Part shown: positions 1,481 through 17,981 of the stretch, piece after piece | How positions within the stretch are numbered: position 1 is the first letter of the stretch | Layout of the letters: each line of letters starts with the position of its first letter | Assembly: GCA_024579835.1 (NCBI GenBank) | Contig: CP102060.1 | Location: 1,795,558 to 1,835,557 of the forward strand | Source: Clostridiaceae bacterium HFYG-1003 | Lineage (GTDB): Bacteria > Bacillota > Clostridia > Clostridiales > Clostridiaceae | Length of the DNA: 40,000 bases | Direction of reading: 5' to 3' | Notes under the pieces: generated by a model | Told to the model about the DNA's origin: nothing | Database searches by the model: none | Seen by the model: only the letters and a program-made list of their open reading frames with translations | Position numbers and translations under genes: made by a program

Positions 1481-1748
1481 TCCAAATCCTTTCTATCCCG
1501 AATGCGCGGTCATGATCTCTTTGCCCGCTCATTCAGTTCATATGATGGTCAGTCTCTCCGACAGGACCTCTTCCATCCATTGTACTCCCGGTCCAGTCTT
1601 GATTCCATCATCCCTCCGATGAAAGTGTTCTTTTCACTTCACAATCTATGCCCCTTCATCTGGATTGGACCAGCTCGTTTTAAGGAGATTCCCTTTGGCC
1701 ATTTCATTTGCTGTGATTTCTCATCGGGCCGCCAAAGTCAGCCATTCC

Positions 1749-3325: not shown

Positions 3326-3808
3326 TTAGAATGGGGCGAAGGCATTGTCAGCCCACCAGTCTTCTTTCAGTTCCTGGTATTTTGCATCGAAGGCATCCCG
3401 ATGTGAAATCTCCCACTCCTGAAGTTTGTTGAATAACACTTTTTCTTCGTCGGTCTGGGCATCGGCGGCTGCCTTTGCGTAAAATTTCTGAGAGTCATCC
3501 TCCATCTTGGTGGCGATGGAGAAAGCAGCCAGTGCGAGAGACAGTTCTGCGGGGGTCAGATTGGAGAACTTAAAGATTCCCGGTGCGGGCACTTCCATCT
3601 CAGCCATTTTCAGGTTATCTTCTCTGGAGTTGGACATCAGCTTTTTCAGGTACTCAATGTGCTCCAGCTCTTCATTGGCGATATCCAGGAAGGTTTTCTT
3701 CACTTCGGGGCTGGTTACCTTTTCCGAATACATCTTATAAAACTGATAACCTTCTACTTCGTTCAGGATGGCCTGCTTGATGATCTCAAGATTTTTCTGG
3801 TTTTCCAT
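3326..3808 (-). CDS. Ferritin-like / rubrerythrin-family protein
   Basis: Track ORF 3326..3916. I moved the start to the internal ATG at 3808, which is preceded by AGGAGCGATCAA. The sequence MENQKNLEIIKQAILNEVEGYQFY...ANEELEHIEYL...LQEWEISH shows paired E..ExxH-type di-iron motifs. Confidence 0.75.
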   Translation of the reverse strand: MENQKNLEIIKQAILNEVEGYQFYKMYSEKVTSPEVKKTFLDIANEELEHIEYLKKLMSNSREDNLKMAEMEVPAPGIFKFSNLTPAELSLALAAFSIATKMEDDSQKFYAKAAADAQTDEEKVLFNKLQEWEISHRDAFDAKYQELKEDWWADNAFAPF

Positions 3809-3944
3809 TTGATCGCTCCTTATGTAAAGTATTACATCCTCATTATAGCGTAAATCCGCCGCAAACTTAGTAACGGTTTCGTTAATTCGGTTACCAGAGC
3901 AAGCTGGCGGGTTCATTGCCTATCCGATGCAGGAGCAGAGCTGA

Positions 3945-5192
3945 TCAGGATGAGAGGCGATGATGCCGGGCATATCCTCCGGCCAGTCCCAGGATGAAGT
4001 AGAACACAAACAGCGGTTTGGGCGACATCCAGTAGCTGTCCAGAATATTACCCAGATAGAATGCGATGATGGCCAGATATACACCATCCATTAAAAAAGA
4101 TCGGCTGGCGCGGTAAACCTGAGCCTTGGTGATGGAACGCATCATCCGGACCGAACCGCCAATCAGGAGGAACAGCGAAGCCAGTCCCGGAATGCCCTGT
4201 TCTGCGGCAAAGCGCAGAAACATGTTGTGGGCATGCCACAGTACTTTGATGTCATAATTGTTGAACATCTGGGGATTTGCTTCAAAAATTCGGACATAGC
4301 CCACCCGAAAGGCGTTGGCGCCCACTCCGAAGAACGGGTTTTCCCGAAACAGCATGGAAGCGACATGCCATACTTTGACCCGCTGAACATTCTGTTCGTA
4401 GGAGAAAATATCCAGCACCCGCTGCTGCAGCGTGGGGGTGACCACCACCACCATCGCCAGGAGTGCCAGCACCAGAATATACTTGGGATTATATTTCCAG
4501 ATGATATAGATCAGCATCACACCGATCACCACAATGCTTGAGCGGGACTGCGAAGTCAGGATTCCAGCCAGGCTGAACAGGGCCAGAACACCATACAGGA
4601 GGCGGCTTTTCCAATCCACGGCACTGCGCACCAGTGAAGCGCAGATCAGAAAAAACATCATGGCAATGATACCCAGATTGTTCGAATTTTCTATGGTTGA
4701 AATGAAGCGGTCGCGCACAATGGCCTCGTGCCTGACATAAGCCGAGGCATACTGCCAGACCAGGTAACCCATCGTTCCGGCGATGGCCAGTGTAAATGCC
4801 TGGAACAGCCGTTTTCGGTAATGCTCCTCGTTAAACTCGTATTTCATAGCCAGGTAAAGCATCAGCAAGTAGAAATACATCAAGCTGTTGCCCAGCGTAT
4901 CCAATCGGGCTTCCGACCAGATGGCGGAGAGAAATGACCACAGGGGGATAAACACCATGGCGAGGGTCGTTCTGCTGTGTCTGGCGTCACGCAGGCCCTC
5001 AACCAGTCGCTGTCTGGCCGGGGCATATAAATATAAGTAAATGCCGTACAAAATCAGCACACTGCATCCCAGCAGGATCGACTCACCGTATTCCAGCAGG
5101 AGAGATCCGACCACAAAAATCAGCAGCAGGCTGAACATGGCGGGACGGCTGTATGTATCTATGTAATTCCTTGATCTTAAGGTATAAGTCAT
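3945..5192 (-). CDS. O-antigen ligase / Wzy_C-family polytopic membrane protein
   Basis: 415-aa ORF with GAGGTGA RBS. It has many hydrophobic segments and a central loop (LTSQSRSSIVVIGV...FGVGANAF) typical of the O-antigen ligase family. Confidence 0.7.
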   Translation of the reverse strand: MTYTLRSRNYIDTYSRPAMFSLLLIFVVGSLLLEYGESILLGCSVLILYGIYLYLYAPARQRLVEGLRDARHSRTTLAMVFIPLWSFLSAIWSEARLDTLGNSLMYFYLLMLYLAMKYEFNEEHYRKRLFQAFTLAIAGTMGYLVWQYASAYVRHEAIVRDRFISTIENSNNLGIIAMMFFLICASLVRSAVDWKSRLLYGVLALFSLAGILTSQSRSSIVVIGVMLIYIIWKYNPKYILVLALLAMVVVVTPTLQQRVLDIFSYEQNVQRVKVWHVASMLFRENPFFGVGANAFRVGYVRIFEANPQMFNNYDIKVLWHAHNMFLRFAAEQGIPGLASLFLLIGGSVRMMRSITKAQVYRASRSFLMDGVYLAIIAFYLGNILDSYWMSPKPLFVFYFILGLAGGYARHHRLSS

Positions 5193-5388: not shown

Positions 5389-5565
5389 TTAGAGCAGGAT
5401 TGCTCCGACTGGGCAGCTGTCAGCTGCTTCCTGAGCGGCTGGATCTGAAGTTTCAGCAACCAGAGCAACTGCTTTTCCGTCGTCTTCCATTTCGAAGATT
5501 TCAGGAGCAATGCTTGGGCAAAGGCCGCAACCGATACATAAGTCTTTATCAACTACTGGATTCAT
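5389..5565 (-). CDS. Small 4Fe-4S ferredoxin
   Basis: Track ORF 5389..5574 (GTG start). ATG 5565 is better placed after GGGGGTG. The CIGCGLCPSIAP...C cysteine pattern fits a single-cluster ferredoxin. Confidence 0.8.
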   Translation of the reverse strand: MNPVVDKDLCIGCGLCPSIAPEIFEMEDDGKAVALVAETSDPAAQEAADSCPVGAILL

Positions 5566-5794
5566 ATAATACACCCCCGTGTTTTTTTTACATATCCATT
5601 ATAACATCAGAAACCGCTTCGTAAAGGATTCCCCTGGATACAATATAAATAATATCGTTTTCTGGAATCCTGTCAAGCAGAATTGAAAATGCATCTTAAG
5701 TGTCTGGACTGCATCTGAAGCGGAAACTGCCGGCGCCTTTGATTTCGAACTTCCTGAACCATTGAGGCATCAGGAAAACTGGCTTTCCGATGGA

Positions 5795-6745
5795 TTACTC
5801 ACGAATCATCAGATCTTCCTCAATGAACTCGAAGGTGACTGAACCGGACTGGCTGCTCCCTCTGATGGAATGCTGCCCTTCTCCCGCAGTACCCGATGCT
5901 TCCAGCTCCGCATCATCCTGATGCACCCGGACATCGCCGGATTCGCTCGTAAAGCGGTATGCCAGATCAGAACCTCTGTAGTAAATCTCCATATGACCGG
6001 AATCCGTGGTCAGCACAAGATCATTCGTCAGATCGCCGAAATTAAGGCTGATTGAGCCGGATTTCGTCTTGAGGGATCCAGATAAATCTTCTCCCATAAT
6101 ATCGATGGAGCCACTGTCGGTCCGACACTGGAACTCCATGGGATCATCATTGAGAATCAGAATATCCCCTGAAGTTGTCTTGATTACTGCTTCTGTCAGA
6201 GTGGAATCGTAGATATTCAAATTACCGGACTTGGATTCCATCTGGATCCGATCGGCCTCAATTCCGGTAATCTGAACCGAACCTGAGACAGTTGCCAGCT
6301 CGAACTCACGAAATTGTTCCGCCGGCAGGGTGACAAGAGCATATAAGCCTGTCGCAGTAGGATTTTCCTTGATGACTGCAGCGACATCCAGATAGAGTGT
6401 ATCATCCGACTGCCGCCAGGACAGTAAATCGTCCAGCTCATTGGTGACATTTCCCTGAAGCCGGACTTGGAATTCCTCGCCGGATTCAACGGCAATATCC
6501 GCAAAGGACGACTTGAGGACAATATTGTGCACTTCGCCTTTGGGTGTTACCGTCATGGTTTGCTCCACGCTGCTGTATTCAGGAACCACTATGTCAATGT
6601 TCAGTTTTTTCAGATTCATTTCCACCATCCGTGCCAGATCGGCAACGGACAAACCGGCCTGTTGTGCTGAAATCACGCTCATGGCAAAACCTACCAGGCT
6701 TACGAGCAGCGCAAGCACCAGAAAAAGCTTCATTGTTTTACCCAT
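5795..6745 (-). CDS. DUF4097-type beta-strand-repeat protein with N-terminal membrane anchor or signal
   Basis: 316-aa ORF with GGAGGT RBS. The N-terminus MKLFLVLALLVSLVGFAMSV is hydrophobic. Repeated ..SG.I.I.. strands (TTSGDILIL, DSGSIDIM, KSGSISLN, DSGHMEIY, ESGDVRVH) are present. The start overlaps the upstream stop (ATGGGTAA). Confidence 0.7.
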   Translation of the reverse strand: MGKTMKLFLVLALLVSLVGFAMSVISAQQAGLSVADLARMVEMNLKKLNIDIVVPEYSSVEQTMTVTPKGEVHNIVLKSSFADIAVESGEEFQVRLQGNVTNELDDLLSWRQSDDTLYLDVAAVIKENPTATGLYALVTLPAEQFREFELATVSGSVQITGIEADRIQMESKSGNLNIYDSTLTEAVIKTTSGDILILNDDPMEFQCRTDSGSIDIMGEDLSGSLKTKSGSISLNFGDLTNDLVLTTDSGHMEIYYRGSDLAYRFTSESGDVRVHQDDAELEASGTAGEGQHSIRGSSQSGSVTFEFIEEDLMIRE

Positions 6746-7097
6746 GTCGTACCTCCACTCCGATCATCCGACGAATCATATCAATCACAAATCGAATGAC
6801 GAGGGTCACTCCAAATATAAACAGAATAAAGAACACCAGCGTAAGCGCTGTGATCCCGATTCCAAAAAATATGATGGATTCAGAAGGGATTCCCTGGATC
6901 AAAGTGGCTACTGCCGGCTCAATCTGCGCGATAACCGGAGCAGATGTCACCCCGATTGCCATCACCAGCGCTCCGAAAAGCAGAAGCAGTCCGGTCAGTA
7001 AAAATATGCCAAGCCCCACCACTACAGGAAGTCCCACCGTGAGTACGATAATCAACACAATAAGCTGGGTCATGAACGTTTTTTTCATCTGTACCAC
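6738..7097 (-). CDS. Small polytopic membrane protein, translationally coupled to the DUF4097 gene
   Basis: 119-aa ORF, almost entirely hydrophobic helices. Start is GTG 7097 or ATG 7088 (AAGGGTGG upstream). No family recognised. Confidence 0.55.
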   Translation of the reverse strand: MVQMKKTFMTQLIVLIIVLTVGLPVVVGLGIFLLTGLLLLFGALVMAIGVTSAPVIAQIEPAVATLIQGIPSESIIFFGIGITALTLVFFILFIFGVTLVIRFVIDMIRRMIGVEVRHG

Positions 7098-7136
7098 CCT
7101 TGTCCTATTGTTTATTTCAAATGTACCAATGGTTAA

Positions 7137-7153
7137 TTAACCTAAAATTAAAA
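7137..7153. repeat. Left copy of the 17-bp direct repeat TTAACCTAAAATTAAAA (candidate attL core)
   Basis: Exact match to 23945-23961. The flanking bases differ on both sides. Confidence 0.7.
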
Positions 7154-7251
7154 AAATGGACCTACCAGCAGTAACCTCAAACTATGAAAATGACTGTTTT
7201 GAACGGTTCTCGATAAAAATAACTTACCGTCATATACCTATGTCTATCTAT

Positions 7252-7277
7252 AATTTCTGACGAATTTCTGACGAAAA
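7252..7277. repeat. Left copy of the 26-bp repeat AATTTCTGACGAATTTCTGACGAAAA (tandem 11-mer x2; candidate integrase arm-type site)
   Basis: Exact match to 23885-23910. It lies 98 bp inside the left 17-mer. An inverted partial copy, CGTCAGAA, is at 7385-7392. Confidence 0.65.
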
Positions 7278-7288
7278 CGGAAAAAATT

Positions 7289-7385: not shown

Positions 7386-7881
7386 GTCAGAAGGTTTGTT
7401 CTTTACTATGGGAGGTAAAGCCATAATAATGAATGTCATTGGGTACCCCTAGACCTTTCGGTATAGAGAAGGGAAAAGAATGAAAATCGTACCGTTCTCA
7501 ACAACTTTTCTGTCTTTATATTATAATTTTACCTCGACAGATAATCCGCAGTTGAATGTGGATTTTTATCCAATCTCTCATTTCCGAAATGAACTTAAAT
7601 ATCATAATGGAAGTATCTTTAAATCTTTCTTTCATAATCCATTAATAACTTGTACCCCCTGATACAAGCTCTGGTATTATATTCAAAAATTGCAGATTAT
7701 TTTAATAAATAACGCAATTCAAATCGATTTATGAACGTTAAATCTATTATTAATTGCACAATTAAGATACACTTATTCCCAGAGGAGGCTCGTTCTTTTT
7801 TTATCAAGAAATCTGGTTTTGATGTGTACGGATATCCTATTGTTCAAATCACAAAGTAGTGATTAAGGGGAGTACTATTTT

Positions 7882-7938
7882 ATGATCCATCGATCTCATC
7901 GTTCTTATCTATTCTATTATCCTTTGCCATCTTTCTGA
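7882..7938 (+). other. Orphaned RBS and ATG of the RHS gene, now in the wrong frame
   Basis: AAGGGGAG lies 10 nt upstream of ATG 7882. That frame reads MIHRSHRSYLFYYPLPSF and stops at 7936-7938. The RHS frame is open from 7863 and encodes signal-peptide-like sequence there. Confidence 0.6.
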
Positions 7939-8237
7939 CAGCTTTTACGGGAATTTCGTTTCAAACCGTTCAGGCTGCACCACAGCCTGCTTCCGAACGA
8001 TCCGCCCCACCTTCAGAGGAAGAACTTGGACTAGCTGACAGTATTGACAAAGCGGACCTTGTAGAAATCTCATCACTACGCAGCCAAAACTCCAAGACCT
8101 TCCGAAATAAAAATGGCATTAATTTTGTTGCACTGTATGAGGATGCAGTCCACTATTGTGATGGCGACCAGTGGAAAAACATTGATAACACGATTAAACA
8201 AGAAAGCACCGTTGATGGGACTGAAACCATCGCCAAC

Positions 8238-11200
8238 ATGGCTAATGACTTTTCCGTGAAGTTTGCCAGGAATACCAAGGCAAACTTTCTTGGCATGCTT
8301 CATCAGGGGAATTACAGTTTGAAGTGGTCCCTCTCGGGGGCAAAGGATTCGGCGGTTAAAATGGTTGAGTCTACTTCCCCGTCCTCTGATCAAGCTTGGG
8401 ATTTGCCAGGCATTCACTCTTCGGTCCGCTATGGAGACATCCTGTCCGCCACGGATCTGGAATATGTGGTTTCCGGTTCTGTCGTGAAAGAAAATCTGAT
8501 TTTAAAACAGGCGGGACTCCCTACCAGCTATGTCTTCACCTATCAACTGTCTAACTTGATCGCGAAGAAAATAGATTCAAGGGTTGTGTTTTATGATCTG
8601 AACGATTCTTCGAAGGAAATCTGGGCTCTGACTGCTCCCTTTGTATATGACGGCAAGGATGAAGCATCAGAAGCTGATCTGTCCCTGAAGGATCTGGGCA
8701 ACGGCAAGATCGAAGTCACCCTGTCGGTGGATCCGGCCTGGCTGTCTTCGCCGGAGCGCGTCTATCCGGTGGTCATCGATCCGCCGCTGCGGACGTCTTC
8801 GCTCACCTCGGATATCCAGGATGCCCATGTCTCGCGCCTGGCTCCGGATAAGAATTTTACCACCACCGATTATCTCTCCATCGGTTCCTCCGATACCCCA
8901 GGCAGCCTTTGCCGGGTCTACTTAAAGTTCAATCTTCCCAGCCTGGACCCATCGGATGTCGTGGTGGATGCCAACCTGAACTTACAGGTACGCAAGTACG
9001 AACTAGCCTCTTCCAGCGAGGTCTATCTTCATCGGGTAACTTCAGACTGGAGCGATGAGACCATTACCTGGAATAATATACCAACCCACGAAAGCCTGAT
9101 TGGGGAATATGATCGATTCGCCAAGGCGGATGAGGAAGTTTCCTTTGATGTAACCCAAATGGTACGGGATTGGTATGGTTCGGGTAAAAACTATGGTGTC
9201 ATGCTAAAGAACGCTGATGAAACAGGAAAGTTCGCTACCTTCTATTCCGGGGGTACCACCCTCAGCGGGAAAACTCGGCCATATATGACCATGGCTTACG
9301 TGAACAATGATGGCCTGGAGCCTTACTGGGATTATCAGACTGCATCAGCCGGGCGGGCAGGAAGTGTTCACGTCAACTACTTCACCGGCGCCCTGACTCT
9401 CATCCATCCGGATACCGCAGCTTCAGGCAACCGCCTGCCAGCTCCGGTCAGCCATGTATTTGGCAACACGAAATCCACTGATGCAAAATATGGCTTGGGA
9501 TGGCGGCTTAACTACAGCCAGACCATTAAAAAGATGATCTTTGGAGGGGAGACCTATTATCGATATTACGATGAGGACGGAACAGCCCATTATTTCAACC
9601 AAAGGGATGGGAAATGGCTAGAAGAAAATGACGATCAGTGGGAACTGACGATTAATACCAGCAAACCGGAAGAACAATTTAAACTGGAAGATAAAAGTGG
9701 CAATCAGCTGATCTTCCGTTATGACTCGGTCCATGGGCTGCTGTCTAAAATTGCCGATGCCAATGGCAACACTATTCACATCGAAACCGGTGCCAACGGA
9801 CAAGTAACTCAAGTAACCGATGGAGCCGGAAGAGCTACGAAGTTTATTTACTCAACTGCCGGTCAACTCACCACAATCAAAGCACCGGATGGGAAAGAAA
9901 CAACCTATCACTATACCAATAACCGCTTAACCAAGATCACTTATCCTGATGGGAAGTCTTCCCTTTATACCTATGACTCAACCAGCGGATATCTGACTTC
10001 GGTTCGCAACTTTGACAGCTATGGTTTGAATCTTTCCTATACTTCAGTCAAACCCTATAAAACGTCCAAAATAACCGAAGTTGGGACCAATGGGACGCTG
10101 GGAACTTCCATCAGCCTAGCTTATGGATTAAACAACACGAAATTAACGGATGGTACCGGTCGTACAAACATCTATCAGTTCAACAATATGGGAAAAACCA
10201 TTTCGATCCGGGATCAGGAAGGTTCCGCCTCGTTCTCCGAGTACAACAGTAAAGGCGCAGGCAACTCGAACAAACTGACCCTATCCTCAAAATTGCAGCG
10301 CACGGTCATCAACCTCATCCGAAATCCCGGATTGGAACGCGATACCGACTGGTCATCCAATGCAGTGAATGGCTCAATCGGCCAAGTTGAAAAAATCAGT
10401 ACTATGCCGCTTATGGGATCCTATTCCAAACTGATTTCCAAGACCAACCCGGATGGTCTCCACCAAATCACTCAGAGCCAAACCCTGGAAAAAGGCAAAA
10501 CCTACACATTGTCTGCTTGGATGAAGCCAACAGAGCTCGCATCCGGCGCTTCTACAGGGGCCTACCTGCGAATTCAGTACACCAATAGTGCGGGCACAGC
10601 CAGCTATCAGTACAGCCCCTTTTTATCAGGTACCAGCACGGATTGGGAACGGAGAGAATTCACCTTCATGCTGCCCTCTGATGCCGCTTCCACCACGGTA
10701 TACCTTGGCATTGGAATCCGGGCAACCACAGGAAATCTTCTGGTCGATAACATCCAGCTGGAGGAAGGCACTCTGTCCAACCGTTACAACTTAATCGAAA
10801 ATGGGGATTTCAGCTATAAGGGATTAGGTTGGATCTCCTGGCAGGATGACTCAACCGATGCCGCGGTGATCACAACTTCCGATCCGGCTCACCCCACTTC
10901 CTTAAGTGACCAGGTGTATCCCATCAAGGGTGATTCAACGCAGAATCATGCCATCGCGCAAAATGTCAAGGTCAACGGTGGTAAGGGTGACACCTTCGTG
11001 TTTGCCGGCTGGGGAAGATCGGACTCATTGCCGGTGGAACCTTACCGCCATTTCTCTCTTTGCCTTGGAATCAATAACACGGATGGCACCACGACCTGGA
11101 AAACCATCCATTTCAACGAAGAGACCAAAGACTGGCAGTATCTGGCCGAAGAGGCCGTGGCCGAGCAGCCATATACCTCTGTGGATCTTTTCCTCATGTA

Positions 11201-13835
11201 CTACAAAAACTTAAACACCGGGTATTTTGACGGGCTGCAGCTCTACAAGGAAACCTTTGGAGAATCAACTATTTATGATGAATCTACCGGTAATCTGACC
11301 TCCTCAACTGATCTCTCGGGCAACACATCAGAATACGGATATACCACAAATGATGATCTCACCACTGTGACCGATCCTTTGAAGAATACCACCACGGCAT
11401 CTTATGATGATAATCATCAGGTGACGGGAGTAAAAACAACAGAAGGCGAGAATACCAGTTTCACCTATGACCAATATGGTAATGTCACAAAGACAAAAAC
11501 TGGAACGACTCCCTTTATTGAAAGTCATTCAAGCTATACCGAGGACGGCAATTTCATCAATACCATGACCGATCCTTTGGGCAAGGTCATCACCTATGAT
11601 TACAATACCGTCAATGGCTTGTTGAAAAGTCTCACCGACGCAGCTGGAAAAACCACGACCTATACTTATGATGATGCTACCGACCAGCTTAAAGGTGTGT
11701 CCAAGCAAGTGGACGGTCAAACAGTGGCAGTAGGTTACACCTATGATGGGGATGACCTGTCAGGCATTAACCACAATGGCTTCTCTTACTCCTTCACGAA
11801 GGATGTTTTCGGTCGAGCCACTGGGGTTAAAGTCGGCAGCCAGAGCCTGGTCGGCTACAAGTACGACTCGCGTGGAAATCTGACCACCACGGAGTTTGGC
11901 AACGGCCATAAAACATTAGTAGAGTATGATCCTCTGGATCAGGTGAAAGCCTATAAGGTATATAATAGTGGTACGGGAAGCTATGAAACTAAGTTCCGTT
12001 ATGAGTATGATGCTTCAGGAAACGTCGGCTATGAGTACGATGCGGTAAACAACCTATCTCATCGCTACTTCTATGACATGTCCGATCGTCTGGTTAAAGA
12101 AACGGTCAGTGACAGCAGCAGCCTCAGCATGGGCTTTGACCCAAACGGACAAGCGACCCAGATCACGGAGAGCTTTGGCGAGAAAAGCTACAACACCGCC
12201 TACACCTATGATAAGGACGGCAAGCTAACTAAATTGACTAATGCCGGTGGATCGATGACCCGTACCTATGACAGCCTGGGTCGCCTGGTCACAATCACGC
12301 TTGAGGCAGGATCAACAAATGCGATTACCAGTTACACTTACAAAGCGGGAACTAACGGCAGTACCAGCAACTTGGTCGAGACGGTCACGGATCCGGACAA
12401 GACGATAAGTTATACCTATGATGATAACGGCAACATCAAGACCATTAACTCTGCCGGCAAGCTCATCACTTATACCTACAACGAATTAAGTGAACTAGTC
12501 CGGGAAGACAATGAAGTAATAAACAAGACGATCACCTATCGCTATGATGCCGGCGGCAATCTCCTGGAGAAGAAGGAATACGCCTGCACTACGGATCCCT
12601 TAGGAACCCCTGACAAAACCATCTCCTATGGGTATGCCGATACCAACTGGAAAGACAAACTGACCAGCTTTGACGGCAAAGCCATAACCTATGATGCCAT
12701 TGGCAACCCCTTAAGCTTTGACGGCTGGACCTATACCTGGGAAGAAGGCCGCCAGCTTAAGACCCTGTATAAAAACGACACCAGCTTAAGCTTCAAGTAC
12801 AACTCCAGCGGCCTGCGCACGGAGAAAAGTGTCAATGGTATTTCGACCAAATACATCTACCTAGACGGAAAAGTAGCCTTTGAAACCACAGGAACTGAGA
12901 CGATCCACTACACCTATGACGGAAGTGGGGCGCCCTTCTCCATGACCTATAACGGCAGTGAGTTCTTCTATCTCACGAACCTCCAAGGGGATGTGACAGG
13001 ACTTGCTGATGCCACAGGCGCCACTGTTGTCAGCTACACCTACGACAGCTGGGGTAAGCTCATGAGCACCACCGGGTCTATGGCAACTACACTTGGTGCA
13101 AAGAACCCGTATCGCTATCGCGCATACCATTATGATACCCAGACTGGACTATATTATCTCCAAAGTCGATACTACAATCCTGAGAGCGGTCGATTCATAA
13201 ATGCAGATAGAGCTGAGATTGTAAACGACCACCATGAAGAATTGAGTAAAAATCTTTTTACCTATTGTAGTAATAATCCAGTTAATAATTTTGATAATAC
13301 AGGAAATTGGAAAATTCCTAATTGGGCAAAAATTACCATAGGGGCAGTTGCCATTGTAGCAACAGGTGTAATAACCGCTGCAAGTGGTGGTTTAGCAGCC
13401 CCAGCAATGTTAGGAGCTCTACAAGTGGCTGGGCATTCTGCCGTTCTTGGCTCAGTGGTTGGCGGATTATCTGGCCTAGTAAAAAATGGCAAGAAGGGAA
13501 TCATAAGTGGTGCTATTGATGGTGCGATAAACGGTTTTATGTGGGGTGGTGTTGGGGCAGCAGGCGAAACATTTGCATCAAAAGTACTTTCAAAAGCCAT
13601 TTTTAATGGGAATGGAGGTTACGGGTTTAAAATCGGAAAGAAATTCGAAGCTTTATATAAAAATCCCAGTAAAAAAAGCGGAGGAACTATTATTTCACAT
13701 GTAAAAAGTAGGGTCAGGCTAGATTTAGACTTCACACATGGTTTGCACGCACACTGGGGTAAAGGAAAAGCAGCTAAAAAAATTCATCGAAGTTTATACC
13801 CGTGGAACTTTGGGAAACCGAAAAAATTCTGGTAG
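8238..13835 (+). CDS. RHS / YD-repeat polymorphic toxin (WapA-like wall-associated protein) with an unrecognised C-terminal toxin region
   Basis: 1865-aa track ORF. It has a DNRLRE-like N-terminal domain (SDIQDAHVSRLAPDKNF...RVYLKFNLPSL), two CBM-like segments (NLIRNPGLERDTDW...LVDNIQLEEG) and dozens of YD repeats (YTYDDNGNIKT, YRYDAGGNLLE, YKYDSRGNLTT...). The core closes with YYLQSRYYNPESGRFINAD...NLFTYCSNNPVNNFDNTG. The coding frame is open upstream to 7863, but 8238 is the first ATG/GTG/TTG in that frame. Confidence 0.9.
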   Translation: MANDFSVKFARNTKANFLGMLHQGNYSLKWSLSGAKDSAVKMVESTSPSSDQAWDLPGIHSSVRYGDILSATDLEYVVSGSVVKENLILKQAGLPTSYVFTYQLSNLIAKKIDSRVVFYDLNDSSKEIWALTAPFVYDGKDEASEADLSLKDLGNGKIEVTLSVDPAWLSSPERVYPVVIDPPLRTSSLTSDIQDAHVSRLAPDKNFTTTDYLSIGSSDTPGSLCRVYLKFNLPSLDPSDVVVDANLNLQVRKYELASSSEVYLHRVTSDWSDETITWNNIPTHESLIGEYDRFAKADEEVSFDVTQMVRDWYGSGKNYGVMLKNADETGKFATFYSGGTTLSGKTRPYMTMAYVNNDGLEPYWDYQTASAGRAGSVHVNYFTGALTLIHPDTAASGNRLPAPVSHVFGNTKSTDAKYGLGWRLNYSQTIKKMIFGGETYYRYYDEDGTAHYFNQRDGKWLEENDDQWELTINTSKPEEQFKLEDKSGNQLIFRYDSVHGLLSKIADANGNTIHIETGANGQVTQVTDGAGRATKFIYSTAGQLTTIKAPDGKETTYHYTNNRLTKITYPDGKSSLYTYDSTSGYLTSVRNFDSYGLNLSYTSVKPYKTSKITEVGTNGTLGTSISLAYGLNNTKLTDGTGRTNIYQFNNMGKTISIRDQEGSASFSEYNSKGAGNSNKLTLSSKLQRTVINLIRNPGLERDTDWSSNAVNGSIGQVEKISTMPLMGSYSKLISKTNPDGLHQITQSQTLEKGKTYTLSAWMKPTELASGASTGAYLRIQYTNSAGTASYQYSPFLSGTSTDWERREFTFMLPSDAASTTVYLGIGIRATTGNLLVDNIQLEEGTLSNRYNLIENGDFSYKGLGWISWQDDSTDAAVITTSDPAHPTSLSDQVYPIKGDSTQNHAIAQNVKVNGGKGDTFVFAGWGRSDSLPVEPYRHFSLCLGINNTDGTTTWKTIHFNEETKDWQYLAEEAVAEQPYTSVDLFLMYYKNLNTGYFDGLQLYKETFGESTIYDESTGNLTSSTDLSGNTSEYGYTTNDDLTTVTDPLKNTTTASYDDNHQVTGVKTTEGENTSFTYDQYGNVTKTKTGTTPFIESHSSYTEDGNFINTMTDPLGKVITYDYNTVNGLLKSLTDAAGKTTTYTYDDATDQLKGVSKQVDGQTVAVGYTYDGDDLSGINHNGFSYSFTKDVFGRATGVKVGSQSLVGYKYDSRGNLTTTEFGNGHKTLVEYDPLDQVKAYKVYNSGTGSYETKFRYEYDASGNVGYEYDAVNNLSHRYFYDMSDRLVKETVSDSSSLSMGFDPNGQATQITESFGEKSYNTAYTYDKDGKLTKLTNAGGSMTRTYDSLGRLVTITLEAGSTNAITSYTYKAGTNGSTSNLVETVTDPDKTISYTYDDNGNIKTINSAGKLITYTYNELSELVREDNEVINKTITYRYDAGGNLLEKKEYACTTDPLGTPDKTISYGYADTNWKDKLTSFDGKAITYDAIGNPLSFDGWTYTWEEGRQLKTLYKNDTSLSFKYNSSGLRTEKSVNGISTKYIYLDGKVAFETTGTETIHYTYDGSGAPFSMTYNGSEFFYLTNLQGDVTGLADATGATVVSYTYDSWGKLMSTTGSMATTLGAKNPYRYRAYHYDTQTGLYYLQSRYYNPESGRFINADRAEIVNDHHEELSKNLFTYCSNNPVNNFDNTGNWKIPNWAKITIGAVAIVATGVITAASGGLAAPAMLGALQVAGHSAVLGSVVGGLSGLVKNGKKGIISGAIDGAINGFMWGGVGAAGETFASKVLSKAIFNGNGGYGFKIGKKFEALYKNPSKKSGGTIISHVKSRVRLDLDFTHGLHAHWGKGKAAKKIHRSLYPWNFGKPKKFW

Positions 13836-13843
13836 AATAAACA

Positions 13844-13922
13844 AATGACTTAATAATACAAGTCATTAAAACGATAAATTAAAACGAGTTTTTATTTATT
13901 TTAAAACTCGTTTTAATTTATC
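13844..13922 (+). terminator. Two consecutive hairpins after the RHS stop codon
   Basis: The first is AATGACTT (13844-13851) / AAGTCATT (13860-13867). The second is a 20-bp perfect stem, GATAAATTAAAACGAGTTTT (13873-13892) / AAAACTCGTTTTAATTTATC (13903-13922), with a T-rich loop. Confidence 0.6.
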
Positions 13923-14067
13923 TAAGGCAATTTCCAGGATACCAATATAGGGATAATCATATATACTTCCCTACTTCTAGCCACTGAAGAGCAAATGATA
14001 TGTTCATAATAATTCTCATTTAATTAAAACATAAATTGCAATAAAAATTTAATAGGAGTTAGTCTAA

Positions 14068-14655
14068 ATGCGCTACAATAAAAAGATCCTTAAAAACGGA
14101 ATTCATGAAGTTGAAATTACTGGTTTCGATATTGAAACCGCTGAATCAAAAGAATTGTTAAAAACTATTATTAGCCTACTAACCTCTGGAATCGAATATT
14201 ATTTTCATTTTTCCAATGAAGATAGTTTTTTTCTAGAAGATGATGAACTGGTTAAGTGTAGACACGATGTTCCAAATCAATTCTCTTCTGATAATTATCT
14301 AGTACCATTTAAGATTGATGATGAACATTTTGATAGCATTGGTTTTCTGCCAGTCAATAATCAAACCTACGAAAAAATTCTAGACTTTTGGAATTATTTT
14401 GAAGGAATGACTTTTTTCACTCCAAAAGATGTTAGCAAGGAATTGTTTAAAAAATCATATAAAATAGAACCGCAAGAAAATGGAGTGGGTTACTTAGATT
14501 CTAACTATGCCGAATCTGTGTTTAATAAGGGACATGATAGAGATTCACTTGTATTTTCATATACACCAACCTATGATGATCAGAGTCTTAAAGTCATTTT
14601 AGACAGAATTGACAAAGAGAATCATACACGTAATTATAGCTGGTTTAATTGGTAA
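14068..14655 (+). CDS. Hypothetical acidic cytoplasmic protein; candidate immunity protein for the RHS C-terminal toxin
   Basis: 195-aa track ORF with AGGAG 9 nt upstream of the ATG. It is the first gene downstream of the toxin, on the same strand, in the same AT-rich block (18/60 GC in line 14101-14160). It is D/E-rich with no TM segment and no recognised family. Confidence 0.5.
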   Translation: MRYNKKILKNGIHEVEITGFDIETAESKELLKTIISLLTSGIEYYFHFSNEDSFFLEDDELVKCRHDVPNQFSSDNYLVPFKIDDEHFDSIGFLPVNNQTYEKILDFWNYFEGMTFFTPKDVSKELFKKSYKIEPQENGVGYLDSNYAESVFNKGHDRDSLVFSYTPTYDDQSLKVILDRIDKENHTRNYSWFNW

Positions 14656-14698
14656 CACCCCCTGGTAGGATCGACATTTAGCATGGTTTTCGCAACAT

Positions 14699-14725
14699 AA
14701 ACCCCGGATCACTCCGGGGTTTCTC
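14699..14725. terminator. Hairpin terminator between convergent genes
   Basis: 9-bp perfect stem AACCCCGGA (14700-14708) / TCCGGGGTT (14713-14721), loop TCAC, followed by TTTCTC. Confidence 0.6.
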
Positions 14726-14804
14726 AAATGCTCATATCAAAAAGCTCTCTGCATTCCAGGCACCAGTAGATCTCATCCCGGATCCTACCCATCAGGGATG
14801 TCTG

Positions 14805-14984
14805 TCAGTCCGGGCAAACTGCCGTACCTGTAAAGTCCGAGTACTGAACAGGACCAGCCAACTGCTTGTACCTAGTTACCGTGTTCAGGTTGACGTGTAC
14901 CATCCGCCCATCTGCCTGATAGATTTGGTTTCCAGTCCTGAAATATTCATCGATTGCTGCCTTCAAGAAGTCTTTTTCACTCAT
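14805..14984 (-). CDS. Hypothetical small protein (59 aa)
   Basis: Track ORF 14805..15035. I moved the start to the internal ATG 14984, preceded by GAGGTGAGACGA. It sits in a ~52% GC patch (31/60 in line 14821-14880). No family recognised. Confidence 0.4.
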   Translation of the reverse strand: MSEKDFLKAAIDEYFRTGNQIYQADGRMVHVNLNTVTRYKQLAGPVQYSDFTGTAVCPD

Positions 14985-15033
14985 TCGTCTCACCTCGTTA
15001 GTTCGTACATACATTCTAACATTAAGGTTGGAC

Positions 15034-15075
15034 AAAAAGAAAAAGCCAGGAAAATCCTGAGCTTTTATTTCTATT
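15034..15075. terminator. Terminator closing the three-gene PIN cassette
   Basis: Stem AGCCAGG (15044-15050) / CCTGAGCT (15056-15063) with one bulge. An A-run lies upstream and TTTTATTTCTATTTT downstream, so it could act on both strands. It begins about 6 nt after the PIN gene stop at 15081. Confidence 0.55.
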
Positions 15076-15080
15076 TTAAA

Positions 15081-15707
15081 CTACGGCTTAAAAGGAATAA
15101 GAATACTTGAACCTACGTGATTTTTATACCCTCCCTTTTTTATAGGTATGACATTTATCCCATTTATTTTTGAGTAACCGAAATCACCAGTTGCTATGGT
15201 GTTAATCCCATATTCAAATGCCGTAAGAACAATTCCAGTATCACTAACTTCAACACAACCATTAAACTGCTTTTGTAGTGTCATGACCCGTGTACAATAA
15301 TCCGTTGGATTCTCTAAAACATCTACCATGGATAGTATATCAGACATAGCCGCGTCCCTATTTGCAGCAACCGTTTGAAAGTAATTGGGGCAGCGGATTT
15401 CTAATTCTTTCTGAAGCTTCTTGAATCCTTGGTTACCTTTATAGTTTCCAATCGAAATATTGTATTGAATTGCTAAATCTTGAGTATAAACCCTCTGTAT
15501 AATATCCATCAATTCATGTTGAATAGTTTGAGTAATGTACATGTTAATGTTGCTCGAAGTCAAATTACTGATTAGATCTACAGCATTTTGTTGATGATAA
15601 GACTGCCCGTCAAGAATATCGATAAACACGTTAGTATCCACTACAACATCCGATATTCCAGGATGAGAAGTTATGTTTTCTGGAAAAATAATATTTGCAG
15701 CCATCAC
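15081..15707 (-). CDS. PIN-like nuclease domain protein (208 aa, longer than VapC)
   Basis: Track ORF. Acidic residues follow PIN spacing: VVVDTNVFIDIL (first Asp), QHELMD (Glu), VSDTGIV and IATGDFGY (distal Asp residues). Start is GTG 15707 or ATG 15704, overlapping the upstream stop (GTGATG). Line 15421-15480 has 17/60 GC. Confidence 0.6.
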   Translation of the reverse strand: MMAANIIFPENITSHPGISDVVVDTNVFIDILDGQSYHQQNAVDLISNLTSSNINMYITQTIQHELMDIIQRVYTQDLAIQYNISIGNYKGNQGFKKLQKELEIRCPNYFQTVAANRDAAMSDILSMVDVLENPTDYCTRVMTLQKQFNGCVEVSDTGIVLTAFEYGINTIATGDFGYSKINGINVIPIKKGGYKNHVGSSILIPFKP

Positions 15708-15868
15708 TTCACCCGCGAAATATTGTTATATGGTTCTAGGTTGATAAATGCTTTCGGGCTAGGCGCATTTTTCTTTAAATTGTCAATTGCTTTTCGAGCG
15801 ATAAAAACCCGCTCTGATGTAGTTTTATTATTAATTGATTCAATGGGCCGTTTAATAATTTTAGGCAT
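15704..15868 (-). CDS. Small basic protein (54 aa), antitoxin-position partner of the PIN-like gene
   Basis: Below the ORF-track size cutoff. My translation is MPKIIKRPIESINNKTTSERVFIARKAIDNLKKNAPSPKAFINLEPYNNISRVK. Its TGA stop (15706-15704) overlaps the PIN start. It begins 4 nt after the upstream stop. Confidence 0.45.
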   Translation of the reverse strand: MPKIIKRPIESINNKTTSERVFIARKAIDNLKKNAPSPKAFINLEPYNNISRVK

Positions 15869-15872
15869 GTAA

Positions 15873-16283
15873 TCAACCCGCTTTCACAAAATAAAGTTTT
15901 TTCTCCTCCTTAAAAGAATCAGCTTCTACTTTTAAAACATATTCACCTTCATCTTCAATGAAAACATTTTTAAGGGGAAGATTCAGATTAATGCCAGCTA
16001 TCTCTTTCGGAACAGAAGGATTAACTTGGATACTTGTATTAATCTCGGCAGCTGCTTCGAAAAGTAATCGATCGGTCCTAGGATTCATAAATGATATTTT
16101 CAAATTGGCTGGTTCCAATGGGAGGCCTTTCAACATAATAAGTGCTGAAAAAGAAAAAGTGCTTGGCAAAACTTCTAATATAAATGATGCCGTCGGACTA
16201 ACAACCGCAGGTTTAACAATACCCTTTGCCGAAGTAGGTAAATCGATAACGTCTTCGCAAAATATAATATTCTCGAGATTCAT
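15873..16283 (-). CDS. Hypothetical 136-aa protein, first gene of the PIN cassette
   Basis: Track ORF with GAGGTGA RBS 5 nt before ATG 16283. It looks mostly beta-strand, has no TM segment, and I cannot name a family with confidence. Confidence 0.55.
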   Translation of the reverse strand: MNLENIIFCEDVIDLPTSAKGIVKPAVVSPTASFILEVLPSTFSFSALIMLKGLPLEPANLKISFMNPRTDRLLFEAAAEINTSIQVNPSVPKEIAGINLNLPLKNVFIEDEGEYVLKVEADSFKEEKKLYFVKAG

Positions 16284-16319
16284 TCAAATCACCTCTATAA
16301 TCTTAAGATTTGTTTTATA

Positions 16320-16350
16320 ATTGTACCACACTTTACTTTATATGTATAAA
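16320..16350 (-). promoter_or_regulatory. Candidate sigma-A promoter of the PIN cassette (extended -10)
   Basis: The minus strand reads TGgTACAAT (-10 hexamer at 16325-16320, TG at 16328-16327). The -35 is weak (TATACA-like). It lies between the lysis-cassette terminator and the cassette RBS. Confidence 0.45.
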
Positions 16351-16407
16351 GCCCTATGTTTTTCTCTCGGAATGGTGGAGCGAATAGTGGATGGGGCTTG
16401 TTTATAA

Positions 16408-16443
16408 TAAAAGAGCCCCCGGATTGCTCCGAGGGCTCTTTTT
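16408..16443. terminator. Strong bidirectional terminator ending the lysis cassette
   Basis: AAGAGCCC (16411-16418) pairs with GGGCTCTT (16433-16440), plus 4 inner pairs and loop TTGC. It is flanked by A-runs and T-runs. Confidence 0.7.
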
Positions 16444-16472
16444 AATGTCATAACTATGATTTAATAACTATT

Positions 16473-16841
16473 TTACATCGCCGGATCCTGAGCGTCAATG
16501 ACAATCGGCAGAGCTTCTGGCAGCTCCTGATCCCACATTTCCTTTACGGCGGTCTCGATATAGTGGTTCAATTCGTCCGTGCTAAATCCTTTGATTCCCC
16601 AGCCCTGGATCTGACAGGTCAGCCGGGCCAGTGCTTCTTCCTTTTTCTTCTTCCCGGTTTGCGTCTTCAGATCGTTCTCAACAGATTTCACGGCAATGTC
16701 TGCCATCTGCAGGACCAACTGGATCTCTTTGTTATCTCGGTTTCGGTCAATCCATTCTTTAAGAGCCGGCACCAGCACGGCCGTTATCAGGAGCATCGCC
16801 ATCTTAATAACAGCATCCACAATAATCGTTCTTTCAGTCAT
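16473..16841 (-). CDS. Phage holin, LL-H-like
   Basis: 122-aa ORF with AGGAGG RBS. It has a single N-terminal TM (IKMAMLLITAVLVPALKEWI) followed by a charged helical tail. It follows the endolysin directly. Confidence 0.6.
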   Translation of the reverse strand: MTERTIIVDAVIKMAMLLITAVLVPALKEWIDRNRDNKEIQLVLQMADIAVKSVENDLKTQTGKKKKEEALARLTCQIQGWGIKGFSTDELNHYIETAVKEMWDQELPEALPIVIDAQDPAM

Positions 16842-16853
16842 GCTTTTATCCTC

Positions 16854-17594
16854 CTACTTCTTCAATACACGTTTCAAGAATGAGTAAAGGATCCAGACCA
16901 ACGTGTGTTTGCTGATCGGCCCTTTCCAATCTTCGTTCTTTACCAGTCCATTCTCAACCGCCCATTTCTGTGCTTCGTCCATTTCAATAACCTCCTGTTT
17001 TCTTCCCTTATCCCATTTGATCAGATCAGTCAGAAGCTCCTCCCAGGGGAACTCCCTGCCCGGATCTGTGATTGATCGGTTGACTGTATCCACCTCGTAG
17101 TGACCTAAGATGTGATCCCGGTCAATCAAAAAAGGCTCCTTAAAAGTAGCCTCGTACTGATCGATGATGTATTTGTGCAGCCAAAGCGTTGCCTCGTACT
17201 GTGCGGCCGTCAAGCGCCCCTGGGTGTCCTTGTGTACGCCTTCATGCTCAATCCCTACCGTATAGAGGTTTGGCGGTGCAGAGCGTTCCTTGACGATCCT
17301 GGCGGACGGTGAGCGCTTCAGCGCATGCCATGTTCCATGGTGCAGATCCGCCAGCTGGTAGATCTCACCCTTCCGGGTTACCAGGAAATGGCAAGATACT
17401 TCTGCAGCATAGTGCAGCTCACCGGGTGAAGTCTCTACTTTCTTCACGTTTGTAAGCCAGTTTAAGGTTCCGGGCATCAGCCCTTCCGTAATGTGGTTCA
17501 CGATCACATCCCACTTTTGTGGGGTCTTGAAAGTCGTGTTTCTTCGCAAAGTTGAAATCTTTCCGTTGTAATTCTCTGCTTTTTTGATTTCCAT
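16854..17594 (-). CDS. Phage endolysin, N-acetylmuramoyl-L-alanine amidase (Amidase_2 / PGRP fold)
   Basis: 246-aa ORF with GGAGGAAC RBS. Motifs include VNHITEG, CHFLVTRKGEIYQL, GIEHEG and GHYEVD...DPG, typical of type-2 amidases. Confidence 0.8.
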   Translation of the reverse strand: MEIKKAENYNGKISTLRRNTTFKTPQKWDVIVNHITEGLMPGTLNWLTNVKKVETSPGELHYAAEVSCHFLVTRKGEIYQLADLHHGTWHALKRSPSARIVKERSAPPNLYTVGIEHEGVHKDTQGRLTAAQYEATLWLHKYIIDQYEATFKEPFLIDRDHILGHYEVDTVNRSITDPGREFPWEELLTDLIKWDKGRKQEVIEMDEAQKWAVENGLVKNEDWKGPISKHTLVWILYSFLKRVLKK

Positions 17595-17603
17595 TAGTTC
17601 CTC

Positions 17604-17981
17604 CTATCTCATTTTTTCCAGGACCTGACTGATCTCGACAAAGCTATACCCCATGAGAACCATGGAGATGATAACAGCTCCAAGGATGATCCACATGAGG
17701 TATGTCGGGTTTTTCAACAGGATCGCCAGCCAGCCGTTGCCGTTCTGTTTGGCCTGTGATGGCGTTACTACCATTATTGAGTTTTCGATTTTCTTCAGGC
17801 TGTCCGGAACACCGTTCAGCCGTTCCAATGCCAGCGAGAAGTTCTGATGCTCCGTGTCATTGCGTCTTGCGATGGCCTCCAGCTCATCGACACGTTGTTC
17901 CATTGCCTTGATATCGTCCTTTAGCCGCCCTACCTCTGCCAGGATCCGACCATGCTCGACGGGGTTAATTTCATATGCCAT
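17604..17981 (-). CDS. XhlA-like lysis accessory protein (coiled coil plus C-terminal TM)
   Basis: 125-aa ORF with GAGGTGAGAA RBS. It has an N-terminal coiled coil (LKDDIKAMEQRVDELEAI) and a C-terminal TM (YLMWIILGAVIISMVLMGY). It lies immediately upstream of the amidase, as in the PBSX xhlA-xhlB-xlyA layout. Confidence 0.55.
   Translation of the reverse strand: MAYEINPVEHGRILAEVGRLKDDIKAMEQRVDELEAIARRNDTEHQNFSLALERLNGVPDSLKKIENSIMVVTPSQAKQNGNGWLAILLKNPTYLMWIILGAVIISMVLMGYSFVEISQVLEKMR

Follow-up and report, generated by a model that had tools for sequence, protein, structure and literature searches.

RHS/WapA toxins are common weapons of Gram-positive bacteria. Proteins of the WapA type (Bacillus subtilis WapA; Streptococcus suis WapA-CT, PMC12704120) combine a Sec-type leader region, a DNRLRE domain and an RHS shell with an Rhs core that cleaves itself, a pre-toxin segment and a polymorphic C-terminal toxin, and they are accompanied by a downstream cytoplasmic immunity gene and by arrays of orphan cassettes. 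The route by which WapA/RHS tips cross the target membrane has been called 'enigmatic' (PMC12704120), and comparable entry questions are open for the LXG toxins, for which an amphipathic translocation domain has been proposed (PMC12478183), and for the ABP toxins (PMC13460014). Here we describe an RHS gene of Clostridiaceae bacterium HFYG-1003, found in a stretch of 40,000 nucleotides (contig CP102060.1, positions 1,795,558 to 1,835,557; the window hereafter), and in particular the tip of its product, that is, the final 176 residues (nt 13305-13832) that follow ...NNPVNNFDNTG. The tip is a swapped-in cassette, in which a glycine-zipper membrane module is followed by a small and very basic putative toxin domain (the tail) of an uncatalogued family. 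The features of the locus are collected in Table 1.

This kind of system is well known; the present architecture and families are new. Three parts lie outside every catalogue: a glycine-zipper pre-toxin module in wide use, a basic toxin domain that is seldom found, and an acidic immunity protein. The locus shares with the WapA-type proteins the DNRLRE domain, the RHS repeats, the Rhs core, a pre-toxin segment before a polymorphic tip and a downstream immunity gene, with a candidate leader sequence, a putative cleavage motif and orphan arrays in relatives, and differs from them in several respects. Its pre-toxin segment is a 95-residue, three-helix glycine zipper that is unmatched by PT-TG, the pre-toxin model found at the corresponding place in S. 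suis WapA (PMC12704120). Neither the toxin nor the immunity protein belongs to a catalogued family, the gene has no neighbouring LysM, sortase or SecF-like partner, and the start codon is out of frame.

Other toxins resemble the locus in part. Tde1 of Agrobacterium tumefaciens also has a run of GxxxG motifs adjoining a cytoplasm-acting toxin domain, and this glycine zipper is required for membrane permeabilisation and for delivery of the DNase effector (PMC10240207). However, Tde1 is a small type VI secretion cargo of a Gram-negative bacterium and not an RHS protein, and the role of the zipper in our locus is one that we infer. In Tse5 (RhsP1) of Pseudomonas aeruginosa, an RHS shell likewise surrounds a hydrophobic, membrane-inserting C-terminal fragment released by an aspartyl protease, and chaperones it until the membrane is reached (PMC10684867). 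Tse5-CT is itself a toxin that forms pores, with a membrane protein to confer immunity, whereas here there is a separate toxin domain and a soluble immunity protein that tracks it. The ABP (BetaH) toxins of Gram-positives share a membrane-active helix upstream of a highly cationic enzymatic toxin, together with cytoplasmic immunity, and their proposed entry is receptor-free and dependent on membrane potential (PMC13460014). They differ in being small, Sec-secreted and activated by a partner protease, in lacking an RHS shell, and in having a single amphipathic helix and known toxin folds. EsxX of Staphylococcus aureus has a glycine-zipper C-terminal region that is neutralised in the producer by soluble protein(s), ExiAB (PMC12744356), but it is an LXG substrate of the type VII secretion system, its zipper is the toxin, and a membrane immunity system, ExiCD, exists too; in our locus no membrane immunity open reading frame (ORF) was found. 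Finally, C-terminal displacement in the Rhs proteins of Enterobacteriaceae (PMC2935791) shows the same contrast between a GC-richer core and an AT-rich tip and immunity gene, with exchange in the core end. There, displaced orphan tips pile up downstream, whereas here a single cassette is present and arrays are found instead in relatives (L002, L022, L025).

Two modules in the tip

By its sequence the ORF is an RHS/YD-repeat polymorphic toxin of the WapA-like, putatively Sec type. Pfam and NCBIfam models place along its 1865 residues, in this order, DNRLRE/CBM96, CBM_4_9, RHS repeats (PF05593 in 12 stretches, E 4.6e-48; TIGR01643, E 7.7e-35), Rhs_assc_core and the tip. The core terminates in YCSNNPVNNFDNTG, where the DPxG motif of autoproteolysis appears in variant form: the protein reads DNTG-NW where homologues with the same module read DDSG-YW, DDNG-SW or DPDG-AW (D[DPN]xG.W).

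An earlier note on this DNA had described the tip as being of unrecognised type and as made of a hydrophobic, glycine-zipper-like stretch followed by a lysine-rich tail, and all of this holds. No Pfam or NCBIfam family, and no known toxin family, matched the tip at E≤1, and the same was true across sets of 48 and 33 family members, the scattered Pfam matches among the 48 tail-family members (all E≥0.003) being taken as chance, with a like outcome for NCBIfam. Nor was a match found in PDB sequences or by Foldseek. The first part of the tip is 44% G+A+S, with six GxxxG motifs and three predicted helices, and the tail is a domain of 81 residues with an isoelectric point (pI) of 10.5 and a net charge of +15.

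Relatives were sought exhaustively with HMMER among 1.84 billion representative proteins, which yielded 128 matches that cover tip residues 1-95, or approximately 80-172, or both; a single-sequence word search found one relative only, and a scan of viral contigs none. After local iteration over these matches, the membrane module was present in 106 proteins and the tail in 52, and 26 proteins carried both. Because module and tail are found independently, each occurring without the other, we dropped the view of the tip as a single 'glycine-zipper toxin' as our main interpretation. AlphaFold2 (33-sequence alignment) predicts long helices at tip residues 6-26, 31-61 and 64-99 and then a five- to six-stranded antiparallel beta meander; the mean pLDDT (predicted local distance difference test score) was 69 for the tip model and 70.5 for a tail-only model.

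Three eukaryote-like repeat proteins among the high-scoring HMMER matches (P0086, P0095, P0144) were left out of the tail family as spurious and rejected as toxins. All three are long, rich in K, E and D, and contain between 8 and 28 tandem copies of a unit of about 40 residues, FKEGEKVEAQYKGKSKFYPGVISRCRLNGTYDIDYDDGEKE, that aligns to tail residues 106-146, and the resemblance is probably either compositional or due to a shared small beta-barrel.

The membrane module consists of a WKIPNWAK lead-in, three predicted hydrophobic helices, a conserved T..TGG, a GxxxG x5 zipper and a closing ...DGA.NGFMWGG. Five glycines run in register (G65-G69-G73-G77-G81 in tip numbering; nt 13497-13547). Across the family the module starts with a conserved W-K-[LI]-P-N-W-A-K straight after the cleavage motif, and an RHS core-end motif directly precedes it in at least 72 of the 89 assessable cases. 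Ninety-four of the 106 module-bearing proteins extend at least 50 residues past the module, and the sequences found there fall into 22 BLAST clusters of C-terminal domains, just two of which are the tail family. Those recognised by Pfam include PT-HINT, Tox-REase-7, TNT, AHH, GIY-YIG and DUF4258. These are domains that act inside the target cell, and several are known cytoplasm-acting enzymes. Since at least 20 unrelated C-terminal domains follow the same module in other RHS proteins, the module is a pre-toxin element and not the toxin itself, and it most likely serves membrane insertion or translocation. A device of that sort would be the best explanation for a hydrophobic zipper set between a self-cleavage site and a variety of cytoplasm-acting toxins, and Tde1, the ABP toxins, the LXG toxins and Tse5 speak for it by analogy.

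Two other roles for the module have to be weighed. The earlier note had proposed that the glycine-rich part was either a pre-toxin trafficking or membrane-insertion segment or itself pore-forming, and the 22 clusters behind the module favour the first option. Under the second, the whole 176-residue tip would be one depolarising or pore-forming toxin, with the zipper as the pore and the basic beta domain docking on anionic lipids or regulating it. The consecutive GxxxG motifs in hydrophobic helices that characterise glycine-zipper depolarising toxins (Tse5-CT, EsxX, TelE, CdiA ionophores) are indeed present in the tip, which has the five-fold GxxxG zipper and three hydrophobic helices; Tse5 (PMC10684867) and EsxX, neutralised by the soluble ExiAB pair (PMC12744356), are precedents, and the Tde1 zipper inhibits growth independently of the DNase (PMC10240207). 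On the other hand, the same module stands before nucleases and an NADase that have immunity genes of their own, and, as said, 94 of the 106 proteins go on well past it. We consider the pore improbable, also in view of the immunity gene (see below).

It has also been proposed that the PreT segment of S. suis WapA, the N-terminal portion of its C-terminal fragment, which carries the PT-TG motif, contacts the inner wall of the shell (PMC12704120). By extension, the module could be a mere packing or anchoring element that keeps the toxin within the shell or tethers the fragment, once released, to the producer membrane, with no part in target entry and with the tail still acting as the toxin. Its start, always right behind the cleavage motif, fits such a role, but filling the shell would by itself need no three long glycine-zipper hydrophobic helices, and tail-bearing RHS proteins with quite different linkers occur. 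The PT-TG model, moreover, does not match: PF14449 gave nothing at E≤1 with the tip or with 33 members, nothing at E≤0.001 with 59 module-bearing proteins, and nothing at the tip in a whole-genome scan, while matching in control genomes. On these model searches we rejected membership of PT-TG, and no other Pfam or NCBIfam model covers the module. A role confined to packing seems to us unlikely, about as much so as the pore, and we retain a translocating pre-toxin module as the preferred reading.

The basic tail and its putative immunity gene

The ORF that follows the RHS gene encodes a protein with no transmembrane or hydrophobic segment, predicted to be soluble, whose charge (-14, pI 4.8) is complementary to that of the tail. 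It has no relatives in Pfam, NCBIfam or PDB (best PDB profile match, E 0.11). Homologues of this protein (P0002) lie directly after tail-bearing cassettes in seven other loci, with E values of 2e-5 to 3e-39. In the seven scored pairs the module is present in L002, L022 and L023 and absent in L003, L004, L007 and L024. In Clostridium manihotivorum CT4 (L002) the homologue stands directly after the tail (42% identity, E 1e-39), and so it does in the metagenome loci L003, L004, L006 and L007, in L022 and L023, two loci of a genome from another family within the same taxonomic order, and in L024, from a third genome. As a control, the genes behind proteins that join the module to other toxins (P0007, P0006) are unrelated to the 195-residue protein (E>2). 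From these comparisons the predicted immunity gene tracks the tail, not the membrane module, and its recurrence in seven other loci identifies tail and 195-residue ORF as a putative cognate toxin-immunity pair. Ranked by identity to their counterparts in the window, tails and immunity proteins agree weakly (rho 0.64, p 0.12, n=7), which is at most suggestive. In subfamilies of the tail that are more distant, the gene downstream encodes a different small soluble protein, as is usual for diverging immunity proteins. The cassettes next to these in the arrays of relatives form canonical pairs: Tox-GHH accompanied by a SUKH immunity protein, and Imm11.

These observations bear on the pore as well. 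Were the zipper the toxin, the 195-residue protein would have to shield the producer cytoplasm by sequestering the tip, an arrangement to which we give the same low likelihood, given that members of the immunity family accompany the tail also in loci without the module (L003, L004, L007, L024) and that no second, membrane-type immunity ORF exists in the spacer or downstream of it (13836-15080). The idea of the zipper as a terminal toxin that sets the immunity gene was thus not borne out: 22 clusters stand behind the module, and immunity is soluble and follows the tail.

The earlier note had further suggested that the tail might be a small nucleic-acid-targeting domain. Its status as a separate toxin domain with a cognate immunity gene is supported by the sequence comparisons; the nucleic-acid part of the claim simply fits the charge and the soluble acidic immunity protein. 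Tail-family domains sit at the C-termini of RHS fragments behind the membrane module, and also behind quite different linkers without it. Across 33-48 sequences T1817, R1827, H1837, H1839 and H1850 are invariant (including an H-x-H) and D1829 nearly so, within the signature F-x-G-N-x-G-Y-G-[FY]-K-I-G-K-x-x-E-x-L-Y-x-N-P...G-G-T...F-R-[IL]-D-x-D...G-L-H-x-H...H-R. Several features suggest that the tail is an enzyme acting in the cytoplasm, most likely on nucleic acid: the immunity protein is of a soluble, cytoplasmic type, the positive charge is extreme, the domain is small, and an invariant Thr/Arg/His cluster lies on a beta hairpin. We hold this assignment tentatively, at slightly under an even chance.

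No catalogued family accounts for the tail. Curated polymorphic-toxin models (the Tox- and Ntox-type models of Pfam; NCBIfam) gave 0 families at E≤1. A PDB sequence-profile search had as its best match an anti-CRISPR protein at E 0.21, by chance, and none below E 0.2. Foldseek searches with the 176-residue model against PDB, and with the tail-only model against PDB and BFVD, returned no E<0.9 and no template-modelling score (TM) above 0.43. Matches to polo-box, frataxin and KTSC structures (E>1, TM<0.4) were dismissed as noise. Neither BECR/barnase-like nor His-Me finger/HNH folds gave a match to a solved member by Foldseek or PDB profile, with models of pLDDT about 70 only. Readings of the histidine motif as an M23 peptidase (HxxxD...HxH), a 2H phosphoesterase or an HNH enzyme were dropped too, since they are at odds with the spacing and with the size of the domain, and since H145, which precedes the hairpin turn and would have to be the catalytic histidine, lacks conservation.

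Few genomes carry the tail: one of 399 sampled across the class, that one being the window's own, two of 40 close relatives, and one species genome recovered by a pattern scan. In one RHS protein of a distant tail subfamily (P0008, 2667 residues) the ORF continues for about 190 residues past the toxin domain into an apparent immunity gene, which could reflect a missing stop, read-through or another genetic code.

Cassette exchange at the core end

The composition of the gene changes abruptly near its end. GC content at third codon positions (GC3) drops from 0.56 over the RHS body to 0.24-0.33 once the core end is reached, and the maximum-likelihood change point in GC3 falls at nt 13083-13143, with a log-likelihood ratio of 30.8 that was reached by 0 of 300 permutations. 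At 34.5% GC, in a genome that averages 51.1%, the block 13080-14659 ranks at the 0.63 percentile of genome windows of equal size. The earlier note had reported the drop from counts of 27/60 at 12001-12060 and 19/60 at 13621-13680, which are exact, and had placed the break exactly at the end of the RHS core. The break is real but sits within the conserved core end, about 35-75 codons before the DNTG, and the onset that the note had given, 13190-13200, matches the downstream edge of the transition instead.

Comparison with relatives locates the same junction. Two same-genus genomes carry RHS fragments 76-81% identical to the body. One of them, L021, aligns through NLFAYCLNNPINMSDGDG and then continues into an unrelated tip, and L015 likewise has a different end. 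DNA identity to L021 is 0.80-0.89 up to about 13070, falls to 0.71-0.78 at 13086-13190, where the protein is nearly identical despite the lowered DNA identity, and is below 0.6 after 13190. Most matches in the 40 relatives also stop at the core end. Conversely, the genome of another family holds a tip whose tail shows 71% identity, together with the immunity gene, and the same cassette of tip and immunity gene is found in orphan arrays of C. manihotivorum. The orphan cassettes of relatives begin about 120 residues upstream of the tip, consistent with a core-end junction. Composition, same-genus bodies with unrelated tips and the same cassette in another family bear out the earlier view of the tip as an acquired module: where the body is conserved, other tips are carried. 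Our results support the tip as part of a mobile C-terminal toxin/immunity cassette (about nt 13080-14660) acquired by recombination. No other copy or orphan cassette is present in the window's own genome.

The C. manihotivorum locus L002 (NZ_CP025746.1: 4483352-4491588) is an array of orphan RHS C-terminal cassettes, whose members are listed in Table 1.

Table 1. Coordinates of the features of the locus in the window and of the L002 array (positions within that locus)
Feature	Position	Strand	Remarks
RHS/YD-repeat polymorphic toxin ORF	8238-13835	+	1865 aa counted from first ATG; frame open from 7863 (1990 aa)
RHS repeat-associated core	13041-13304	+	TIGR03696, residues 1602-1689, 65.8 bits vs cut-off 32.5; directly before tip
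Composition/homology transition	13080-13200	+	inside conserved core end; likely recombination junction; from GC3, GC profile and DNA identity
Pre-toxin membrane module	13305-13589	+	tip residues 1-95, ~95 aa
C-terminal toxin domain (predicted), uncatalogued family	13590-13832	+	81 aa, predicted beta-meander, pI 10.5
Spacer, toxin stop to immunity start	13836-14067	+	232 nt, 23.7% GC, two hairpins, no ORF
Cognate immunity gene (predicted), uncatalogued family	14068-14655	+	195 aa, pI 4.8, charge -14, own AGGAG ribosome-binding site
Phage lysis module: holin	16473-16841	-	
Phage lysis module: Amidase_2	16854-17594	-	
Phage lysis module: XhlA-like	17604-17981	-	
L002 array: Imm11 gene	807-1568		upstream
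L002 array: same module, tail and immunity gene	3353-4825		
L002 array: other toxin and Imm32-like gene	5433-6436		
L002 array: third cassette	6906-7280		degraded; membrane module still visible

Proposed action, gene start and surroundings

Two-module architecture, toxin-immunity linkage and cassette swap are the results of the analysis, and around them we propose the following course of events. The cassette would have recombined into the WapA-like, Sec-type RHS protein of this Clostridia-class bacterium via the conserved core-end sequence. The RHS aspartyl-protease site (DNTG) would cleave the protein and release the 176-residue fragment, held inside the RHS shell. The 95-residue pre-toxin module, with its three glycine-zipper helices, would then insert into the cytoplasmic membrane of the target, and this insertion would aid the crossing of the strongly cationic 81-residue beta-rich domain, probably helped by the membrane potential. 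That domain would be the actual toxin, with a cytoplasmic target, most likely nucleic acid, on which the invariant Thr/Arg/His-x-His/His constellation might act in catalysis, and the producer would be protected by direct binding of the soluble acidic 195-residue protein to the toxin. Taken as a whole, a recombined cassette that joins a translocating pre-toxin module, a cationic toxin and an acidic immunity protein is the account that we favour, with measured confidence.

Several points weigh against it. We infer the role in translocation solely from architecture and analogy. The putative cleavage motif is DNTG and not the canonical DPxG. Searches of Pfam, NCBIfam, PDB and BFVD brought up no sequence or fold relative of the tip, and the AlphaFold2 models, with pLDDT of 69-70.5, are only moderate. 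More distant tail relatives end in a hydrophobic C-terminal helix, so the domain could work at the membrane, a point in favour of the pore as well, and ExiAB shows that soluble immunity to a glycine-zipper membrane toxin exists (PMC12744356). It is also atypical that a spacer of 232 nt with hairpins parts the toxin from the immunity gene. Related loci all leave a gap of 5-15 nt after the toxin stop, and the spacer therefore looks like an insertion or an added terminator. Of its two hairpins (minimum free energy -29.4 kcal/mol, z -9.3), one spans 13844-13867 and the other, at 13873-13922, is a perfect stem of 20 bp; being unique in the genome, the spacer was rejected as a repeated mobile element.

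The start of the gene is a further difficulty. A signal-peptide-like sequence, FLSILLSFAIFLTAFTGISFQTVQA/APQP, is encoded in the RHS frame upstream of 8238 (window 7863-8240). The ribosome-binding site AAGGGGAG and ATG 7882, however, are not in that frame, and their own frame stops at 7936-7938. No canonical start (ATG, GTG or TTG) occurs in the RHS frame before 8238, where the first, an ATG, is found, so that the gene may be without a usable in-frame start; the public gene call is shorter still, at 1623 residues. Because ribosome-binding site and ATG are out of frame with the signal-peptide-like stretch, this RHS copy may not be exported. A 1-nt frameshift could explain the mismatch, and so could a phase switch or an error in sequencing.

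If a frameshift has removed start and signal peptide, the locus could be a decaying relic in a prophage remnant, whose tip and immunity gene are no longer deployed. The start region and the short gene call speak for such decay, as do the broken state of the other RHS remnants in the genome and the strong-hairpin spacer that parts toxin from immunity gene. Yet the 5.6-kb RHS ORF, the tip and the immunity gene are each intact, with no internal stops, and sequencing error or phase switching could account for the frameshift. We regard decay as doubtful, though less so than the pore or the packing role, and it bears on the present activity of this copy, not on the identity of its tip.

The favoured account gives the module its interest. 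Located exactly between the RHS cleavage site and many cytoplasm-acting toxins, it is a concrete candidate for the missing translocation step. In a bolder version, which we think rather unlikely, it would be a self-sufficient, receptor-independent carrier into Gram-positive targets, placed before at least 20 toxin families, and the tail would have a new fold with a three-histidine, possibly metal, site. If true, this would offer a minimal tractable system for the entry of WapA/RHS toxins into Gram-positive cells. Should the tail instead prove to be a nuclease of an ordinary kind, and the module no more than a passive linker, ours would be just another polymorphic toxin cassette. The rare toxin and immunity families, with neither catalogue entry nor structural relative, are useful for annotation and may hold a new toxic activity.

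Two more RHS fragments lie in the same genome (L009 and L010; G000:C1:2244080-2244685 and 887308-887436). They are decayed remnants without tips, one of them with eight internal stops.

Downstream of the immunity gene the minus strand carries a PIN-domain gene (15081-15707), a DUF6941-like gene and then the phage lysis module (window 15081-17981 in all), and these lysis genes place the RHS cassette beside or within prophage-derived DNA.

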